DNA from: a virus
Lineage: Duplodnaviria > Heunggongvirae > Uroviricota > Caudoviricetes
DNA: 8,156 nt
IMG/VR virus record: IMGVR_UViG_2778261152_000004
Direction: 5' to 3' (one strand)
Of this stretch, positions 1-8,156 are shown one piece after another. Below the pieces are notes generated by a model. That model ran no database searches, was not told where the DNA came from, and saw nothing but the letters and a program-made list of their open reading frames with translations. Numbering within the stretch: the first letter of the stretch is position 1; each line of letters opens with the position of its first letter. The translations under genes were made by a program, and so were the position numbers.

Positions 1-546
1 ACCAAGATTGACGGTCTGAACATCCCCTGCCTGGTTCGTGGCGTTTTTTACGCCATGGACCATAGTGTTTTGATCTTCTTGATCTGTATCTTTATCTGTA
101 TCTTTATCTGTCGTGACTCGTCGTGACATGTGCGTGACATTTCGTGACGCGCCGTGACAATCGCCATTTTGTTCCCGCTTTCTTTCCCTCTCTCGCTGCG
201 CCCTCTTGCGCTCTGCAGGAGATTTTGCGGTTTGCGAAATATTGCCGTTGTCCTCTTTAAGCACCTGGCGTTTTTCCCATCCAGTGATTAAATCACCATC
301 AAGTACCCGCCCCTGCATCGTCTGCAAAATTGAATCAATTACCTCTTCTGTCACGTCGAGCGCACTTGCCAAATCTTCTGTCGTGACATCAATGTGACCT
401 CGCGTGACATTTCGTGACGCGCTCACCAGGAGGTGGATATACACTGCCATCACTGTTGCAATTGGCTGCCCTGACACCCTGGCAATTGTTCGCCACTTAG
501 GGTCATTTGGCATGTCATGCCATAATCTGAGCCAGGCGTTAGCCAT
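1..546 (-). CDS. Replication initiator (lambda O-like), N-terminal 182 codons; 3' end lies beyond the window start
   Basis: My own minus-strand translation (absent from the ORF track because no stop falls in the window): ATG at 544-546 preceded by GAGGTGAG. Protein begins MANAWLRLWHDMPNDPKWRTIARVSGQPIATVMAVYIHLLVSAS... and is open to position 1. Sits in the O position downstream of the cro-like and YdaT-like genes and contains periodic iterons, as O-type initiators do. Confidence 0.6.
   Translation of the reverse strand, partial: MANAWLRLWHDMPNDPKWRTIARVSGQPIATVMAVYIHLLVSASRNVTRGHIDVTTEDLASALDVTEEVIDSILQTMQGRVLDGDLITGWEKRQVLKEDNGNISQTAKSPAERKRAQRERERKREQNGDCHGASRNVTHMSRRVTTDKDTDKDTDQEDQNTMVHGVKNATNQAGDVQTVNLG
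61..160. repeat. Putative replication origin: AT-rich tract with 12-bp tandem repeat (61-110) followed by five CGTGAC iterons
   Basis: CGTGAC at 112-117, 122-127, 133-138, 143-148 and 153-158 (spacing 10/11/10/10 bp, one helical turn). Adjacent 61-110 is AT-rich and holds ctgtatctttat x2 (84-107). Iterons beside an AT-rich stretch inside the initiator gene is the lambda ori layout. Confidence 0.5.
351..422. repeat. Second iteron cluster, including a 21-bp exact direct repeat of the first cluster
   Basis: (C/T)GTGAC at 382-387, 393-398, 403-408 and 413-418 (spacing 11/10/10), plus an inverted copy GTCACG at 351-356. gcgtgacatttcgtgacgcgc occurs exactly at 132-152 and 402-422. Confidence 0.45.
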
Positions 547-617
547 ACTCACCTCTTCTGATACCGAATCTTTTTACTCACGAGTTGCCGGAAGCGATTC
601 GATATGGCTATTGTCAG

Positions 618-1043
618 TCAATGTACTGCCACAGCATTTCCTGCCGGGCCACCACGGTTCATCTGATTGAAACCGGCGATTGCCACTGCGACAAAATCAT
701 CAGCGTCTCTCACCAGTCGCTCCCGCGTCTCCACCAGCTCCCGAAAATAAGCTGAACTGTGGCTGCGCATTCTGGCCACCAGCAAAGGTGGCATTGCCTT
801 TTCGATCGCTGGTAACAACGCCTGAATTTTTTCAACTGCATCAGGGGTGTCTTTCTCTATCCAGCGGAAAATTTTCTGGGTATTGCGAGCCAGGGCTTCC
901 GGATGGCTGTCGTCGTACAGTTCAGGAAACGTCATACCCAACTCAAAATAAGCCTGGGTTATTCCAGCTGCCGGAACTTTTTCGCCATCAGGACGCGCCC
1001 AGGCATTCATCGCCATGCGGATGTGTTCATGCTTGATTTTCAT
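618..1043 (-). CDS. YdaT-like prophage protein (cII-position gene), 141 aa
   Basis: Track ORF 618..1115 trimmed to the internal start MKIKHEHI... (ATG at 1041-1043) preceded by a strong RBS AAGGGGGGA. The N-terminus matches my recollection of the Rac YdaT family. Overlaps the upstream cro-like gene by 17 nt. Confidence 0.65.
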   Translation of the reverse strand: MKIKHEHIRMAMNAWARPDGEKVPAAGITQAYFELGMTFPELYDDSHPEALARNTQKIFRWIEKDTPDAVEKIQALLPAIEKAMPPLLVARMRSHSSAYFRELVETRERLVRDADDFVAVAIAGFNQMNRGGPAGNAVAVH

Positions 1044-1269
1044 GAATCCCCCCTTGGTTAGAAGGCGGATTATGATCAGAACCGGGAATGACAACCGTCG
1101 GTATGTGTAACTCATATTTGAGCGCCCCGGCAGTGACTGCCTGAATTAGCAACGCCCATTTCCACGGAACCTCTTCCCCCCACATGCTGACTGTGGTTTT
1201 TGACGTTCCTAGAGCTGCGGCTGTTTTAACAACTCCGCCAAAATAGCCTAATACTTCTGATTTTTTCAT
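1027..1269 (-). CDS. Cro-like HTH regulator (DicC/YdaS type), 80 aa
   Basis: Track ORF 1027..1317 trimmed to MKKSEVLGYFGGVVKTAAALGTSKTTVSMW... (ATG at 1267-1269, GGAG 8 nt upstream). Small HTH protein transcribed divergently from the repressor. Confidence 0.65.
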   Translation of the reverse strand: MKKSEVLGYFGGVVKTAAALGTSKTTVSMWGEEVPWKWALLIQAVTAGALKYELHIPTVVIPGSDHNPPSNQGGIHENQA

Positions 1270-1298
1270 GAGTCGCTCCATAAAACTGAACGCCAAAA

Positions 1299-1360
1299 GT
1301 TTAATAATCAAAACCAAAGAAAGTCAAGAAACAAAACCATCTGTGTTTTAAAATCAAAAC
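1299..1360. promoter_or_regulatory. Divergent operator/promoter region (OR-like) between the cro-like and repressor genes
   Basis: Two 16-bp palindromes of form GTTTT-N6-AAAAC: gtttaataatcaaaac (1299-1314) and gttttaaaatcaaaac (1345-1360), 14/16 identical, centres 46 bp apart. CAAAAC recurs at 1309, 1332 and 1355 (23-bp spacing). Minus-strand -35 TTGACT at 1322-1327 for the cro-like gene. Plus-strand -10 TAAAAT at 1349-1354 ending 6 nt before the repressor ATG. Confidence 0.45.
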
Positions 1361-1999
1361 ATGAACAAGCAAACAATATCTGAACGCATAACCCAACGTA
1401 TGCATGCGCTAAACCTGAAAGGCAAAGACCTTGTCAATGCCACTGGCGCATCAAAAGGCTCCGTAAGTCAATGGATGAACGGTGGAGGAGCGCCGTCCTC
1501 GCGTTACATAAGTTCACTGGCAAAAATATTGAAAGTAAACGAAAATTGGCTTCTTAATGGAGGAGAGTTAAATACAGGTGATTCGCTTGATCTATCTTTA
1601 CCGCCGATAAAAACGGTTCCGCTACTATCACTTCAGCAGGCAGCAAGCTGGAGTGATTATATGAAAAATTCCTCAATAACCTCTTGTGTGCAGCTTGTCG
1701 GAGAAATCCCGGCCAATACCTTTGCAGTTGTTCTAGAGAGTGACAGTATGTCAACATCTGGTGGGGGAGTTTCCATCCCAAATGGTTCAACAGTTTTTGT
1801 TGATCCCGATCGAACCGTACAACCAGGAAATATTGTCCTTGCCTTACCCAAAGGGACCACAACACCTGTCATTCGTAAACTGGAGATAGAAGGGCCGGAT
1901 ATTCTTTTAGTCCCCACGAATCCTCGCTACCCTTCAATTATGCTGGATGATCTATCTTGCATATTGGGCGTATGCTTTAAAATTCAACAAAATATTTAA
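1361..1999 (+). CDS. cI-type prophage repressor: N-terminal XRE-family HTH plus C-terminal S24 (LexA-like) peptidase domain, 212 aa
   Basis: HTH segment LKGKDLVNATGASKGSVSQWMNG. C-terminal region aligns by eye with lambda cI (ESDSM...VFVDPD...PGNIV...IRKL...LVPTNPRYP vs GDSM...LVDPE...PGDF...FKKL...LQPLNPQYP). Ser129 and Lys173 of the catalytic dyad are present. No SD upstream. Confidence 0.8.
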   Translation: MNKQTISERITQRMHALNLKGKDLVNATGASKGSVSQWMNGGGAPSSRYISSLAKILKVNENWLLNGGELNTGDSLDLSLPPIKTVPLLSLQQAASWSDYMKNSSITSCVQLVGEIPANTFAVVLESDSMSTSGGGVSIPNGSTVFVDPDRTVQPGNIVLALPKGTTTPVIRKLEIEGPDILLVPTNPRYPSIMLDDLSCILGVCFKIQQNI

Positions 2000-2064
2000 C
2001 CGACCTCATCTATTTGATTAACTGTATGCCATCGTGGTGATGGCTTAACAGCTGCCTGCTTAAA

Positions 2065-2112
2065 ATGTTTTGATAAAAAAACATTGACCTGAAAAGTTCA
2101 TTTTTCTAAACT
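2065..2112 (+). promoter_or_regulatory. Putative leftward (dicB-operon) promoter with overlapping operator
   Basis: -35 TTGACC (2084-2089), 17-bp spacer, -10 TAAACT (2107-2112), A-tract upstream. Palindrome ATGTTTT-gataaa-AAAACAT (2065-2084) has the same GTTTT-N6-AAAAC architecture as the OR-like sites and abuts the -35. Confidence 0.4.
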
Positions 2113-2291
2113 TCATTCATTCCCTCTCCCCACCCCACAGAATGCAGGGCAATACTTCTAGTTACCAGGCAGTGGTCAGGGGTTAAGTAGCCAGCCCGAG
2201 GCGTAAGAACATGACGGCAGGGTTCAACTTTAATAACTATGCAGCAGGTTTTTGTTCCGCTACCCCGGCGTTAAGGGGAAATGAGGTCAGC

Positions 2292-2447
2292 ATGGATACT
2301 ATCGATCTTGGCAACAGCGAATCTCTGGTATGTGGCGTGTTCCCCAACCAGGACGGTACGTTCACCGCGATGACGTATACCAAAAGCAAAACGTTTAAAA
2401 CCGAAAATGGTGCCCGTCGCTGGCTGGAAAGAAACTCAGGTGAGTGA
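2292..2447 (+). CDS. ydfA: Small prophage protein, YdfA/YdaF family, 51 aa
   Basis: Track ORF 2211..2447 trimmed to the internal ATG at 2292 (MDTIDLGNSESLVCGVFPNQDGTF...) with GAGG 7 nt upstream. Size and position (first gene after the repressor) match ydfA of the dicB operon. Confidence 0.6.
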   Translation: MDTIDLGNSESLVCGVFPNQDGTFTAMTYTKSKTFKTENGARRWLERNSGE

Positions 2448-2448
2448 T

Positions 2449-2577
2449 ATGGATTTCGACACAATCATGGAAAAGGCTTACGAAGAATACTTCGAAGGTC
2501 TTGCCGACGGCGAAGAAGCTCTCAGCTTCAACGAATTTAAACAGGCGCTTTCCAGTTCGGCAAAATCTAACGGCTGA
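2449..2577 (+). CDS. ydfB: Small prophage protein, YdfB/YdaG family, 42 aa
   Basis: Not in the ORF track (too short). ATG at 2449 lies 1 nt after the ydfA stop with AGGTGA upstream. Translation: MDFDTIMEKAYEEYFEGLADGEEALSFNEFKQALSSSAKSNG. Size and position match ydfB. Confidence 0.55.
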   Translation: MDFDTIMEKAYEEYFEGLADGEEALSFNEFKQALSSSAKSNG

Positions 2578-2606
2578 TAAGCGAAACAGCACCGCGAGGA
2601 ATCAGT

Positions 2607-2825
2607 ATGCAGAAACGAGAACCCGTCATCATCGCGCCAGACTATACCGATGATGAACTTTATGAGTGGATGCGCCAGAAAATTAATGCAGCGCAGGATT
2701 TGAAATGGGCCAATGAAACCAGGGCTAAGCAGGCTGAAAATCTGTCCGCTCTGGAGCAGGATATCACCAATCTGGAAAAAGCAGCGGCATTAAGCATTGC
2801 CAGAATGATTACATACCCGCGTTAG
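2607..2825 (+). CDS. ydfC: Small prophage protein, YdfC family, 72 aa
   Basis: Track ORF with RBS GAGGAA 7 nt upstream; third gene of the ydfABC-dicF-dicB arrangement, size matches ydfC. Confidence 0.6.
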   Translation: MQKREPVIIAPDYTDDELYEWMRQKINAAQDLKWANETRAKQAENLSALEQDITNLEKAAALSIARMITYPR

Positions 2826-2966
2826 TAGCTAATCAACAAAGCTAAGGTTAGTAATTAAGGAGTTCTCCACGGGTGAGGTGGAGTGCGTGCGCCGGACACG
2901 GGTGAGCATCCGGCACTGACAGTTTACTGAAAGGATATTTCCCTGAAAAGTCAGACCATAACGCGA

Positions 2967-3031
2967 AAGCGCACGGCGAGGTAGCTGGTTCATAGATAGC
3001 CTGTCGTTAAATTTTCGTCGACCGTGCGCTT
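2967..3031 (+). other. Long-range RNA stem in the dicF leader (candidate double-strand RNase processing site)
   Basis: aagcgcacggcga (2967-2979) pairs with tcgaccgtgcgctt (3018-3031): 13 bp with one bulge, enclosing a 38-nt loop. Lies in a ~340-nt stretch with no credible ORF. Confidence 0.35.
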
Positions 3032-3165
3032 CCGGTTGTGGCAACCCGCGAAATGGCGCGGCGGTAAGTATGGCGGGGTTATTCCTTCCCCGTTGAGGAC
3101 ACCGGGTTGTCAGGTTGACCATACGCTTAAGTGACAACCCCGCTGCAACGCCCTCTGTTATCAAT

Positions 3166-3223
3166 TTTCTGGTGACGTTTGGCGGTATCAGTTTTACTCC
3201 GTGACTGCTCTGCCGCCCTTTTT
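3166..3223 (+). ncRNA. dicF: DicF small RNA (ftsZ-targeting cell-division inhibitor)
   Basis: Sequence tttctggtgacgtttggcggtatcagttttactccgtgactgctctgccgccc followed by a T5 run matches my recollection of the ~53-nt DicF. Located between ydfC and dicB as in the dicBF operon. Exact 5' end uncertain by a few nt. Confidence 0.65.
3181..3223 (+). terminator. Rho-independent terminator forming the DicF 3' end
   Basis: GGCGG (3181-3185) pairs with CCGCC (3213-3217), followed by c then TTTTT (3219-3223). Confidence 0.5.
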
Positions 3224-3392
3224 AAAGTGAATTTTGTGATGTGGTGAATGCGGCTGAGCGCACGCGGAACAGTTAAAACCAAAAACAGTGTTATGGGTGG
3301 ATTCTCTGTATCCGGCGTTAATTGTTAACTGGTTAACGTCACCTGGAGGCACCAGGCACTGCATCACAAAATTCATTGTTGAGGACGCGATA

Positions 3393-3581
3393 ATGAAAAC
3401 GTTATTACCAAACGTTAATACGTCTGAAGGTTGTTTTGAAATTGGTGTCACTATCAGTAACCCAGTATTTACTGAAGATGCCATTAACAAGAGAAAACAA
3501 GAACGGGAGCTATTAAATAAAATATGCATTGTTTCAATGCTGGCTCGTTTACGTCTGATGCCAAAAGGATGTGCACAATGA
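3393..3581 (+). CDS. dicB: Cell-division inhibitor DicB, 62 aa
   Basis: Track ORF 3288..3581 trimmed to the internal ATG at 3393 (MKTLLPNVNTSEGCFEIGV...) with GAGGA 7 nt upstream. Length and position downstream of dicF match DicB. Confidence 0.7.
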   Translation: MKTLLPNVNTSEGCFEIGVTISNPVFTEDAINKRKQERELLNKICIVSMLARLRLMPKGCAQ

Positions 3582-3769
3582 ATTCAGCATTTGTGCTTGT
3601 TCTGACAGTTTTTCTTGTTTCCGGAGAGCCAGTTGATATTGCAGTCAGTGTGCACAGGACAATGCAGGAGTGTATGACTGCAGCAACCGAACAGAAAATT
3701 CCCGGTAACTGTTACCCGGTCGATAAAGTTATTCACCAGGATAATAACGAAATCCCGGCAGGTCTTTAA
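3578..3769 (+). CDS. ydfD: YdfD-family small membrane protein (reported lysis-type toxin), 63 aa
   Basis: Track ORF 3524..3769 trimmed to the ATG at 3578, which overlaps the dicB stop as ATGA. N-terminus MNSAFVLVLTVFLVSG is hydrophobic. Size and position match ydfD. Confidence 0.65.
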   Translation: MNSAFVLVLTVFLVSGEPVDIAVSVHRTMQECMTAATEQKIPGNCYPVDKVIHQDNNEIPAGL

Positions 3770-3862
3770 AACAGTTCCGTAATAAATATCCGGTTTCATT
3801 CTTATATGCCAGCAATGGCAGGGATTTGTTCATCCTTAAATCTGTCATGAGGTTAAAACAAA

Positions 3863-6334
3863 ATGAGTAAAGTCTTTATTTGCGCCGCTATTCCTGACGA
3901 ACTGGCAACAAGGGAAGAAGGCGCTGTGGCTGTAGCCACAGCCATTGAAGCTGGCGACGAACGCCGTGCTCGAGCAAAATTTCACTGGCAGTTCCTGGAA
4001 CATTATCCGGCTGCTCAGGACTGCGCTTATAAATTTATTGTCTGCGAGGATAAACCTGGCATACCCCGCCCTGCCCTCGATTCATGGGATGCTGAATATA
4101 TGCAGGAAAACCGCTGGGATGAGGAGTCTGCTTCTTTTGTCCCGGTTGAGACTGAATCCGATCCGATGAACGTCACTTTTGACAAGCTGGCCCCTGAAGT
4201 ACAGAACGCTGTCATGGTTAAGTTCGACACATGTGAAAACATCACCGTTGATATGGTTATTAGCGCACAGGAATTGTTGCAGGAAGACATGGCAACATTC
4301 GACGGACATATCGTTGAAGCGTTGATGAAAATGCCAGAAGTTAACGCCATGTATCCGGAGCTTAAGTTGCACGCCATTGGGTGGGTTAAGCATAAATGTA
4401 TTCCTGGTGCTAAATGGCCCGAAATTCAGGCAGAGATGCGCATCTGGAAAAAACGTCGCGAAGGTGAACGCAAGGAAACCGGAAAATACACGTCTGTTGT
4501 TGATCTCGCCCGCGCCAGAACCAATCAACAGTACACTGAAAATTCAACAGGAAAAATCAGCCCGGTCATTGCTGCCATTCATCGCGAATACAAGCAGACA
4601 TGGAAAACACTGGATGACGAACTGGCCTACGCTCTCTGGCCTGGTGATGTGGATGCCGGAAACATTGACGGCAGCATCCATCGCTGGGCAAAAAAAGAAG
4701 TTATCGACAACGACCGCGAAGACTGGAAGCGTATCTCGGCATCAATGCGCAAACAGCCTGATGCCCTTCGCTACGACCGCCAGACTATTTTTGGCCTTGT
4801 CCGTGAGCGTCCGATCGACATTCACAAAGATCCCATAGCACTGAACAAATATATCTGCGAATACCTGACGACAAAGGGCGTGTTTGAGAATGAAGAAACA
4901 GACCTGGGCACTGTTGATGTTCTCCAGTCATCAGAAACACAAACTGATGCAGTGGAAACTGAGGTATCTGATATCCCAAAAAATGAAACCGCGCCGGAAG
5001 CTGAACCATCTGTAGAGCGTGAGGGGCCGTTCTATTTCCTCTTCGCAGATAAGGACGGAGAAAAATACGGTCGCGCAAACAAACTTTCTGGTCTGGATAA
5101 GGCACTGGCTGCTGGCGCCACTGAAATCACAAAAGAAGAATATTTTGCCCGAAAAAATGGCACATACACGGGCTTACCGCAAAATGTAGATACCGCTGAA
5201 GATTCAGAACAACCAGAGCCGATAAAAGTTACCGCTGACGAAGTAAACAAAATTATGCAGGCAGCCAATATCAGCCAGCCTGACGCCGATAAGTTGCTTG
5301 CTGCGTCACGTGGTGAATTTGTTGAAGGGATTAGTGACCCGAATGATCCGAAATGGGTTAAGGGGATCCAGACCCGCGATTCTGTGAACCAGAACCAGCA
5401 TGAATCGGAACGGAACTACCAAAAAGCGGAACAAAACAGCACAAATGCGTTACAAAACGAGCCAGAAACGAAACAGCCTGAACCAGTGGCGCAACTGGAA
5501 GTGGAAAAAGTCTGCACCGCCTGCGGTCAGACCGGCGGCGGCAACTGCCCTGATTGTGGCGCGGTGATGGGCGACGCAACATACCAGGAAACATTCGATG
5601 AAGAGTATCAGGTTGAAGTTCAGGAAGATGATCTGGAGGAAATGGAAGGCGCTGAACATCCACACAAGGAGAACACTGGCGGCAATCAGCATCACAATAG
5701 CGATAATGAAACTGGCGAGACGGCAGATCACTCAATTAAGGTGAACGGTCATCACGAAATCACATCCACCAGCAGGACGTGTGACCATCTAATGATCGAC
5801 CTTGAAACCATGGGAAAAAATCCTGATGCCCCGATCATCTCAATAGGTGCAATATTTTTCGATCCGCAAACCGGAGATATGGGACCGGAATTTAGTAAGA
5901 CTATCGATCTGGAAACTGCTGGCGGAGTCATTGATCGGGACACCATTAAATGGTGGCTTAAGCAATCACGCGAAGCGCAATCTGCCATTATGACCGATGA
6001 AATCCCGTTAGATGATGCACTGTTACAATTGCGGGAATTTATCGACGAAAACTCCGGTGAATTTTTTGTTCAGGTTTGGGGAAATGGAGCCAACTTCGAC
6101 AACACGATTTTGCGTCGTTCATACGAACGGCAGGGGATCCCCTGCCCGTGGCGTTACTACAACGATCGCGATGTACGCACAATCGTTGAGCTGGGGAAAG
6201 CCATAGACTTCGATGCCAGAACGGCTATTCCATTCGAAGGTGAGCGCCATAATGCACTTGATGACGCCCGTTACCAGGCAAAATACGTTTCAGTTATCTG
6301 GCAAAAACTGATCCCGAGTCAGGCTGATTCTTAA
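3863..6334 (+). CDS. Large prophage exonuclease: unknown N-terminal region, RecE-like central linker with CxxC-x7-CxxC zinc ribbon, C-terminal DEDDh 3'-5' exonuclease domain, 823 aa
   Basis: Single long ORF with a GAGG RBS. C-terminal motifs: Exo I MIDLETMG, Exo II VWGNGANFDNTIL, Exo III HNALDDARYQAKY. Central segment DKLLAASRGEFVEGISDPNDPKWVKGIQTRD...CTACGQTGGGNCPDCGAVMGDATYQETFDEE resembles what I recall of the RecE (exonuclease VIII) linker. Occupies the exo position upstream of xis-int. Confidence 0.8.
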   Translation: MSKVFICAAIPDELATREEGAVAVATAIEAGDERRARAKFHWQFLEHYPAAQDCAYKFIVCEDKPGIPRPALDSWDAEYMQENRWDEESASFVPVETESDPMNVTFDKLAPEVQNAVMVKFDTCENITVDMVISAQELLQEDMATFDGHIVEALMKMPEVNAMYPELKLHAIGWVKHKCIPGAKWPEIQAEMRIWKKRREGERKETGKYTSVVDLARARTNQQYTENSTGKISPVIAAIHREYKQTWKTLDDELAYALWPGDVDAGNIDGSIHRWAKKEVIDNDREDWKRISASMRKQPDALRYDRQTIFGLVRERPIDIHKDPIALNKYICEYLTTKGVFENEETDLGTVDVLQSSETQTDAVETEVSDIPKNETAPEAEPSVEREGPFYFLFADKDGEKYGRANKLSGLDKALAAGATEITKEEYFARKNGTYTGLPQNVDTAEDSEQPEPIKVTADEVNKIMQAANISQPDADKLLAASRGEFVEGISDPNDPKWVKGIQTRDSVNQNQHESERNYQKAEQNSTNALQNEPETKQPEPVAQLEVEKVCTACGQTGGGNCPDCGAVMGDATYQETFDEEYQVEVQEDDLEEMEGAEHPHKENTGGNQHHNSDNETGETADHSIKVNGHHEITSTSRTCDHLMIDLETMGKNPDAPIISIGAIFFDPQTGDMGPEFSKTIDLETAGGVIDRDTIKWWLKQSREAQSAIMTDEIPLDDALLQLREFIDENSGEFFVQVWGNGANFDNTILRRSYERQGIPCPWRYYNDRDVRTIVELGKAIDFDARTAIPFEGERHNALDDARYQAKYVSVIWQKLIPSQADS

Positions 6335-6346
6335 TGTTCAACTGTC

Positions 6347-6376
6347 GCCGGTTGTGACTGGTATTCTGCAACCGGC
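6347..6376 (+). other. Stem-loop between the exonuclease gene and xis
   Basis: gccggttg (6347-6354) pairs with caaccggc (6369-6376): 8-bp GC-rich stem, 14-nt loop, no following T-run. Confidence 0.3.
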
Positions 6377-6406
6377 GCTCGTCTGATGTAAGAGATAAAG
6401 AAATCG

Positions 6407-6658
6407 ATGAGCGAAGTAATCATGATTGTCTCTCCCGGCAAATGGGTATCCGAAGAGCAGTTAATTGCGCTGAAAGGAATAAAAAAAGGTACGTTAAAAA
6501 AGGCCCGGGAAAAATCGTTTATGGAAGGAAGGGAATATAAGCATGTCGCTCATGACGGTATGCCATGGGATAACAGTCCATGCTTTTACAACCTGGAAGA
6601 AATTGATCGCTGGATTGAGCGCCAGGCATCAGCGAGACCAAGACGTCATCTTACTTGA
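6407..6658 (+). CDS. xis: Excisionase (lambda Xis-like), 83 aa
   Basis: Small basic protein directly upstream of the integrase. EGREYKHVAHDG resembles the lambda Xis DGREYLFHESA segment. Start may be the in-frame ATG at 6422. Confidence 0.65.
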   Translation: MSEVIMIVSPGKWVSEEQLIALKGIKKGTLKKAREKSFMEGREYKHVAHDGMPWDNSPCFYNLEEIDRWIERQASARPRRHLT

Positions 6659-6692
6659 CTAAAAGCCACACTAACTAATGAGAGAAGTTGAA

Positions 6693-7973
6693 ATGAAATA
6701 TCCGACAGGCGTGGAAAACCATGGAGGGAAATTACGTATCTGGTTTGTTTATAAAGGCGTAAGAGTCAGGGAAAACCTGGGGGTTCCTGACACAGCAAAA
6801 AACAGGCGCGTTGCAGGTGAGCTACGCGCCTCTGTTTGTTACGCAATAAAAACTGGTGTTTTCGACTATGCAAAACAGTTTCCCTCCTCACGCAATCTGG
6901 AAAAATTTGGTGAGGCCCGACAAGATTTAACCATAAAAGAACTGGCTGAAAAATTTCTGGCACTGAAAGAAACTGAAGTCGCAAAAACATCACTCAACAC
7001 ATACCGTGCCGTCATCAAAAATATCCTGAGCATAATCGGTGAAAAAAATCTTGCCTCATCGATTAATAAAGAAAAATTACTGGAGGTTCGTAAAGAGCTA
7101 CTGACTGGATACCAGATCCCCAAAAGTAACTATATTGTTACACAACCAGGGAGATCGGCTGTAACTGTAAATAATTACATGACAAATCTTAACGCCGTGT
7201 TCCAGTTTGGTGTTGATAACGGTTACCTGTTAGATAACCCGTTTAAGGGGATCTCGCCATTAAAGGAATCAAGAACCATTCCGGATCCTCTTTCGCGGGA
7301 GGAATTCATCCGTCTTATCGATGCGTGCAGAAATCAGCAAGCCAAAAATTTATGGTGTGTTTCTGTTTATACTGGCGTTCGCCCTGGTGAGCTGTGTGCA
7401 CTTGGATGGGAGGACATAGATCTGAAAAATGGAACAATGATGATCAGGAGAAATTTAGCAAAAGACCGTTTCACGGTACCAAAAACACAGGCGGGAACCA
7501 ATCGGGTCATTCATCTTATTAAGCCAGCAATCGACGCTCTCCGGAGTCAGATGACATTAACGAGACTGAGCAAAGAGCATATCATTGATGTTCACCTCAG
7601 AGAGTATGGCAGAACAGAAAAACATAAATGCACCTTTGTTTTTCAACCTGAAGTGTCAGCGAGAGTAAAAAATTATGGTGACCATTTTACCGTTGACTCA
7701 ATAAGGCAGATGTGGGACGCAGCGATAAAACGTGCCGGACTCCGCCATCGAAAATCATATCAGTCGAGACATACTTATGCCTGCTGGTCGCTGACAGCTG
7801 GTGCTAACCCGGCATTTATAGCAAACCAGATGGGCCATGCAGATGCGCAAATGGTATTTCAGGTATACGGAAAATGGATGTCTGAAAACAATAATGCACA
7901 GGTAGCTTTGTTAAATACACAGTTAAGCGAGTTTGCCCCAACCATGCCCCATAACGAAGCAATGAAAAATTAA
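6693..7973 (+). CDS. int: Phage integrase (tyrosine recombinase, Rac/Qin IntR-like family), 426 aa
   Basis: C-terminal catalytic motifs RHTYACWSL...GANP...QMGHADAQMVFQVY (His and Tyr present). N-terminal MKYPTGVENHGGKLRIWFVYKG resembles integrase arm-binding domains. Track gives 6678 as start; 6693 is preferred because MKYPTGVE matches the family N-terminus and has a better purine-rich spacer. Confidence 0.85.
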   Translation: MKYPTGVENHGGKLRIWFVYKGVRVRENLGVPDTAKNRRVAGELRASVCYAIKTGVFDYAKQFPSSRNLEKFGEARQDLTIKELAEKFLALKETEVAKTSLNTYRAVIKNILSIIGEKNLASSINKEKLLEVRKELLTGYQIPKSNYIVTQPGRSAVTVNNYMTNLNAVFQFGVDNGYLLDNPFKGISPLKESRTIPDPLSREEFIRLIDACRNQQAKNLWCVSVYTGVRPGELCALGWEDIDLKNGTMMIRRNLAKDRFTVPKTQAGTNRVIHLIKPAIDALRSQMTLTRLSKEHIIDVHLREYGRTEKHKCTFVFQPEVSARVKNYGDHFTVDSIRQMWDAAIKRAGLRHRKSYQSRHTYACWSLTAGANPAFIANQMGHADAQMVFQVYGKWMSENNNAQVALLNTQLSEFAPTMPHNEAMKN

Positions 7974-8079
7974 TTTAATATTTATCAAATAGTTGACACG
8001 TATGACTCTTGAAATCCATAAATTCAAGCGCAGTGCCCAGCCATCCCGATACTGCTGCTTTCACCAAATCCTTAGTGCT

Positions 8080-8156
8080 GGTAATGACTCCAACTTATTG
8101 ATAGTGTTTTATGTTCAGATAATGCCCGATGACTTTGTCATGCAGCTCCACCGATT
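8080..8156 (-). mobile_element. IS1 insertion sequence, terminal inverted repeat and adjoining end (element continues past the window)
   Basis: ggtaatgactccaacttattgatagtgttttatgttcagataatgcccgatgactttgtcatgcagctccaccgatt matches the IS1 terminal inverted repeat (GGTAATGACTCCAACTTATTGAT) and adjacent sequence as I recall it. Confidence 0.85.
8095..8156 (-). CDS. insB: IS1 transposase InsB, C-terminal fragment (5' part outside window)
   Basis: Minus-strand translation ends ...SVELHDKVIGHYLNIKHYQ with stop TAA (complement of 8095-8097), the InsB C-terminus. Confidence 0.8.
   Translation of the reverse strand, partial: SVELHDKVIGHYLNIKHYQ

Follow-up and report, generated by a model that had tools for sequence, protein, structure and literature searches.

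An IS1 element in host DNA 58 bp outside a Qin/mEp460-type prophage with an intact attL in ydfJ

Results and discussion

Gene content and prophage type

The sequence analysed here is an 8,156-nucleotide stretch of DNA (hereafter the window) from the IMG/VR virus record IMGVR_UViG_2778261152_000004. It contains an early-left prophage region with genes for a replisome organizer, YdaT, cro/cI-type regulators, dicB, ydfD, an exonuclease of 823 amino acids (aa), xis and int. The gene order dicB - ydfD - exonuclease - xis - int, together with a fragment of the host gene ydfJ, is that of the Qin/mEp460-type prophages that integrate in ydfJ. Judged by its sequence, the element is a lambdoid prophage of this type, and its int-proximal end (attL) is seen in the window. 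The features of this end are as follows:

6407-6658, plus strand: xis, excisionase, 83 aa, intact (open reading frame [ORF]; the protein is identical to mEp460 Xis)
6693-7973, plus strand: int, tyrosine integrase, 426 aa, intact (exact protein on record; Pfam domains)
7934-7952, plus strand: candidate Int arm-type sites, the tandem TGCCCCAA and TGCCCCAT with 11-bp spacing, within the 3' part of int (proposed from a repeat match)
7974-8010, plus strand: phage DNA from the int stop to the core, the core-proximal P' arm of attL (identical to mEp460 attP)
7975-8079, minus strand: 3' part (codons 9-42 and the stop) of a chimeric ynfP-like ORF, cut off by IS1 (a 42-aa ORF in IS1-free relatives)
8011-8021, no strand: prophage/host junction in attL, with the common core GAAATCCATAA (four-way att comparison)
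8022-8079, minus strand: host DNA, ydfJ codons 9-28, the 5' fragment left by integration (same sequence in IS1-free lysogens and at empty ydfJ sites)
8080-8156, minus strand: IS1 right end, comprising IRR and the last insB codons, with the transposase reading towards the prophage (77/77 identity; InsB C-terminus in frame)

The initial annotation of this DNA had described int and xis as intact, and the protein comparisons agree: in addition to the identity of Xis, Int differs from its mEp460 counterpart at 2 of 426 residues (L180A and H301Y). The int gene ends with a TAA codon at 7971-7973, and the exact 426-aa protein is present in 439 blocks of the assembly collection. Adjacent to attL there are thus an integrase with an arm-binding domain (PF12167, Arm-DNA-bind_2) and a tyrosine recombinase catalytic domain (PF00589, Phage_integrase), both recorded on the exact protein, and an excisionase; Pfam DUF1233 is recorded for the same xis gene in related contigs, and the gene carries an excisionase family annotation. 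There are two in-frame ATG start codons for int in the region 6678-6695, at 6678 (431 aa) and at 6693 (426 aa). The 426-aa form is the one used by RefSeq annotations and by the exact-protein index.

In E. coli K-12, the same place is annotated as the right end of the cryptic prophage Qin, with the order intQ' - ynfP - rspB; at its left end, Qin directly adjoins ydfJ. Qin is reported to integrate site-specifically at the 5' end of ydfJ (PMC6379469), and passages in published work place both Qin and the PPydfJ prophages there (PMC6379469, PMC8112680). The prophage in the window shares with Qin this integration site, the core and the host flank, as well as the rspB neighbour that is found in IS1-free relatives. 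In these relatives, rspB and rspA are located within 187 bp beyond int; rspB itself is outside the window, with IS1 intervening. The two prophages differ in that intQ of K-12 is a pseudogene next to an IS2 remnant, whereas int and xis of the window are intact, and in that the ynfP fragment of K-12 is free of IS1, whereas the ynfP-like fragment of the window is interrupted by it.

Attachment core and prophage/host junction

Four attachment sites were aligned: attL (from the window), attP (from mEp460, L003), attR (from the left end of K-12 Qin, L006) and a deduced attB. The 11-bp GAAATCCATAA at 8011-8021 is the sole stretch common to all four, and the flanks on either side of it are swapped as site-specific recombination predicts. 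This core is defined by identity alone; in the S7 Fig legend of PMC8112680, the att sequence of related ydfJ prophages, which was defined from an attP PCR product, is 18-19 bp. The deduced attB has 100% identity over 510 bp with real, uninterrupted ydfJ-rspB loci, and places covering at least 80% of it were found in 2006 of 5426 genomes.

The two sides of the core were assigned by comparison with free phages and with lysogens. Four phages (mEp460, Tritos, PhiR42_1 and HannyBb) have the same sequence from the int 3' end to the core: with window positions 7600-8079 as the query, DNA identity is 98.8-99.8% within the matched part, and the match to the window ends at about 8026. The P' side of mEp460 attP is identical to 7974-8021. 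These four are free genomes with an attP, whereas the window has an integrated attL followed by host DNA and IS1. IS1-free E. coli lysogens match the window at 100% as far as 8079, beyond which they run on with TCTTTCGTG / TCTTTCGTGTTTTTCTATTGTCAT... into rspB. In a megablast comparison with 5426 complete E. coli genomes, 2697 covered at least 80% of positions 7600-8156. Translation of the host part on the minus strand gives MTIEKHERSTKDLVKAAVSGWLGTALEFMDF..., the N-terminus of YdfJ, and the core spans ydfJ codons 28-31. Because the four-way comparison, the free-phage matches and the empty-site matches all point to the same boundary, we assign 7974-8010 to the phage, 8011-8021 to the junction and 8022-8079 to the host.

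It had been suggested in the initial annotation that a comparison with IS1-free prophages would locate the native att core, and it is this comparison that places it at 8011-8021. For annotation purposes, the prophage boundary can be set at these positions, and 8022-8079 can be labelled as a host ydfJ 5' remnant (ynfP in K-12). The prophage entered ydfJ at codons 28-31, beside rspB, by site-specific recombination with GAAATCCATAA as the crossover core, and attR in the source genome is predicted to read ...GAGCGAATATAACTG GAAATCCATAA TTCACAGGTG....

On the minus strand, the core holds an ATG codon (TTATGGATTTC, YdfJ Met29). At the K-12 attR (L006 3778-3786), this ATG is annotated as the start of truncated ydfJ, so a restartable ydfJ gene remains after integration; as described previously, this gene is without 28 codons (PMC6379469).

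The IS1 end

Positions 8080-8156 begin with GGTAATGACTCCAACTTATTGAT / GGTAATGACTCCAACTTATTGATAGTG and are identical at 77 of 77 bases to the start of three complete 768-bp IS1 copies (L001, L004 and L005), which are located in finished E. coli chromosomes and carry the annotation IS1A/IS1B family transposase. Agreement with a known IS end at all 77 bases is far beyond chance. The terminal inverted repeat (GGTRATG...CCAACTTA..TGAT) is found at the element boundary: 8080-8109 (GGTAATGACTCCAACTTATTGATAGTGTTT) is the IRR of the complete IS1 copies, in which it pairs with the IRL GGTGATGCTGCCAACTTACTGAT. The minus strand of 8080-8156 encodes the C-terminus of InsB, ...SVELHDKVIGHYLNIKHYQ, followed by a stop codon. 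Only the last 19 insB codons are within the window; a programmed frameshift is annotated in the full-length copies that share this 77-bp end. The initial annotation had IS1 starting 106 bp past the int stop, which is exactly the length of the spacer at 7974-8079.

The window stops 77 bp into IS1, such that one IS1 end is visible. This resembles the end of a short-read contig in a multicopy repeat, and since a contig of that kind would end there, the far end of IS1 is out of reach from this sequence. A value of 77 is also a k-mer length often used by short-read assemblers, and the exact agreement with the length of the IS1 part raises the idea that the junction is an assembly artefact in which a repeat-derived 77-base tail was wrongly joined to the contig end. 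We consider this highly improbable. An assembler can take a contig into a repeat only through junction-spanning k-mers, which means that there must be reads connecting ...TTAGTGCT with GGTAATGAC. The junction also falls exactly at the terminal base of IS1, as it does in finished genomes whose genuine insertions are 4 bp and 58 bp away (described below).

Between the core and IS1 there are 58 bp of host DNA (8022-8079). As the initial annotation proposed, IS1 is close to the att region, with the core lying in the spacer between int and IS1; it is not inside the junction. The same annotation went on to propose that IS1 had hit the att region and replaced the prophage/host junction, locking the prophage in despite intact int and xis genes. 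IS1 is indeed a mere 106 bp from the int stop, and events of this kind are real in other strains: in CP010226.1 (L016), IS1 lies inside int with fimbrial genes beyond, and in NZ_CP128592.1 (L026), it interrupts the int 3' end. For the window, such a loss has almost no plausibility. An intact core and adjoining phage arm between 7974 and 8079, which had been named, together with an unchanged host flank beyond IS1, as evidence against it, are both present; the core and the 58-bp host flank are identical to those of IS1-free lysogens and empty sites, and the phage-derived part is identical to the attP of a free phage. Lambda-type integrases are not known to need particular bacterial sequences further than 58 bp from the core. 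Since positions 8022-8079 belong to ydfJ of the host and do not differ from the sequence of IS1-free lysogens or of empty sites, these alignments show that the junction has not been replaced and that IS1 is in host DNA, separated from the prophage by 58 bp.

What IS1 does interrupt is a chimeric ynfP-like ORF. In IS1-free relatives, YdfJ residues 1-31 are fused to 11 phage-encoded residues, giving a protein of 42 aa (MTIEKHERSTKDLVKAAVSGWLGTALEFMDFKSHTCQLFDKY); this ORF is called at 5283-5411 in the IS1-free L008, and its positional counterpart in K-12 is annotated as ynfP (b4534). IS1 cuts the ORF ahead of codon 9. As the prophage had already split ydfJ, no further host gene is lost to IS1, and the sole local effect of the element is that the ynfP-like ORF is cut and the rspAB side is parted from the prophage end.

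IS1 insertions in other strains

In the mechanism that we propose, IS1 would have transposed after prophage integration into the leftover ydfJ 5' fragment, behind base 8079. We infer that the insertion is simple, that it generated the 9-bp duplication CTTAGTGCT and that rspB follows. The predicted far junction is ...GGCAGCATCACC CTTAGTGCT TCTTTCGTGTTTTTCTATTG... (the IS1 left end, the duplication, and the ydfJ start leading to rspB), and the IS1 left end in the source strain would be expected before CTTAGTGCTTCTTTCG.

By analogy with other strains, a simple insertion is likely here. Further along the flank, IS1 is found in the same orientation 4 bp away in E. coli strain 205, 58 bp away in TW10573 and about 680 bp away in E308, where it is inside rspB; each of these copies was inserted simply and has a 9-bp duplication. 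The flank is unchanged around the three neighbouring copies checked for duplications (L001, L004 and L005), and the annotation of two more strains, L023 and L024, shows rspB resuming past IS1. These same observations argue against a different arrangement, in which IS1 lies outside attL and is the endpoint of a rearrangement (an adjacent deletion, an inversion between IS1 copies or a composite transposon), such that rspB is not beyond it. In favour of a rearrangement are the IS1-bounded foreign DNA at this locus in one strain (L016), the absence of the exact junction from all collections searched and the fact that the window ends inside IS1 with the far flank out of view; however, a contig end in a multicopy IS is normal for short-read assembly and is uninformative with respect to rearrangement. 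We regard a rearrangement as unlikely. In either case, simple or rearranged, attL is intact, and a rearrangement arising from this IS1 would part attL from attR only if its other endpoint were inside the prophage.

The junction itself was sought in several collections. In species-representative genomes, there was no match to a 39-mer across the window junction or to the predicted far junction with a duplication of 8-10 bp allowed; in metagenome contigs, there was no match to a 30-mer across the junction. Megablast comparisons of 7600-8156 and of the whole window with the 5426 complete E. coli genomes gave no record with this junction; strain 205, in which IS1 is displaced by 4 bp along the flank, comes nearest. 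When the exact Int and exonuclease proteins were looked up, the 439 and 3170 blocks respectively yielded solely IS1-free or differently arranged loci, both proteins being widespread. The IS1 of the window therefore has the same 77-bp right end as simple insertions of IS1 (IS1A/IS1B) elsewhere, but its insertion point, after ...CCTTAGTGCT, is absent from the collections searched.

Among the matches listed, at least nine complete genomes have IS1 near the junction, at several positions, compared to 2697 genomes with a query coverage of at least 80%. We do not claim an IS1 hot spot: insertion here is recurrent but rare (nine listed genomes versus 2697). Near this prophage end, IS1 is positioned at 3485 in L001, 3539 in L004, 4160 in L005, 3234 in L023, 3158 in L024, 2782-3549 in L026 and 9828 in L016. 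The sites of independent IS1 insertions include the ynfP fragment, the ynfP-rspB spacer, the interior of rspB and the interior of int, mostly in the same orientation as in the window. In L025 (NZ_CM135826.1, positions 2912-3975), the core beside int is followed by P-arm-like sequence and tail-fibre genes rather than by ydfJ and rspB, and IS1 is about 290 bp past the core. This junction appears attP-like, which suggests tandem or nested prophages.

Prospects for excision

The initial annotation inferred from the position of IS1 that the intact int and xis genes would be unable to excise the element. We find no support for this, as attL is intact and 58 bp of bacterial flank are kept. The bacterial arm of a lambda-type site is just a few tens of bases in length. 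Since a bacterial site of about 21 bp suffices in lambda, 58 bp of authentic flank should be ample, and nothing in the window appears to block excision or to suggest that IS1 prevents it. Excision of this prophage, whose attR is outside the window, is probably possible.

The nearest complete genome, NZ_CP098211.1, is 99.5% identical to the window over positions 1-8079. Its 48.4-kb prophage has complete sets of genes for the head, the tail and lysis and is flanked by the same core at both ends, so a complete, excisable prophage is plausible in the source strain of the window also. For a related ydfJ prophage, an attP amplicon is reported in the S7 Fig legend of PMC8112680.

Taken as a whole, it is very probable that the window contains the attL of a Qin/mEp460-type prophage in ydfJ, that this attL is intact, and that IS1 was inserted later, 58 bp outside the prophage, without preventing excision. 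The event is of a known kind, an ordinary IS1 insertion in host DNA by a well-known prophage attachment site. IS1 is thus not grounds for calling this prophage defective or locked in. More generally, an IS near int does not equate to a disrupted att site; it is comparison with free phages and with empty sites that decides the matter.

Candidate arm sites and the attP promoter

There are just two exact matches to TGCCCCAW in the window, at 7934-7941 and 7945-7952. In mEp460 attP, all three exact copies are within about 150 bp of the core, and the P arm of this phage has a second TGCCCCAW pair with the same 11-bp spacing (L003 3042/3053). A Stx2a phage with 92.5% identity in the int 3' end has kept the pair near int. 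The number of matches in the window is not above chance (2 matches are reached in 40 of 200 shuffles); it is their clustering and tandem spacing, alone, that are suggestive of arm sites, with the P' pair lying in coding sequence.

The arrangement may be compared to lambda attL (B-O-P'). As in lambda, transcription of int runs towards att, the N-terminal domain of the integrase is an arm-binding one, a short core is followed by the bacterial arm, and the candidate tandem arm repeats are at apparently lambda-like distances from the core. The two differ with respect to both the sequence and the length of the core (11 bp of identity in the window, in contrast to the 15-bp lambda core). Furthermore, the target in the window is inside a coding gene, and part of the P' arm, with its putative arm sites, overlaps the coding end of int.

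A scan of 7850-8156 for promoters and terminators found none, and a sib-like terminator or outward promoter in attL was rejected as a candidate on this basis. In mEp460 attP (L003 2894-2923, corresponding to window positions 7993-8023), there is a near-consensus sigma-70 promoter, TTGACA-18 nt-CATAAT (11/12), with its -10 hexamer in the core; it reads from int into the P arm, towards ynfT/ydfK/pinQ. In attL, the last T of the -10 hexamer is replaced (CATAAA at 8018-8023) and no promoter is called; in attR, the -35 hexamer is replaced by host DNA. The promoter might accordingly be confined to the circular DNA formed on excision and serve to switch with the integration state, with IS1 still an ordinary neighbour. 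We view this idea as doubtful: it is made less likely by the related Stx2a phage (int 3' end 92.5% identical), in which the -35 hexamer is not conserved.

The record of this Stx2a phage (L028, Stx2a_EH1535, LC727872.1) keeps ATGACTCTTGAAATCCATAA at about 1150-1260. Past the core, its sequence is unlike both the ydfJ flank and the mEp460 P arm, which could mean either that its P arm differs or that the record has another boundary.
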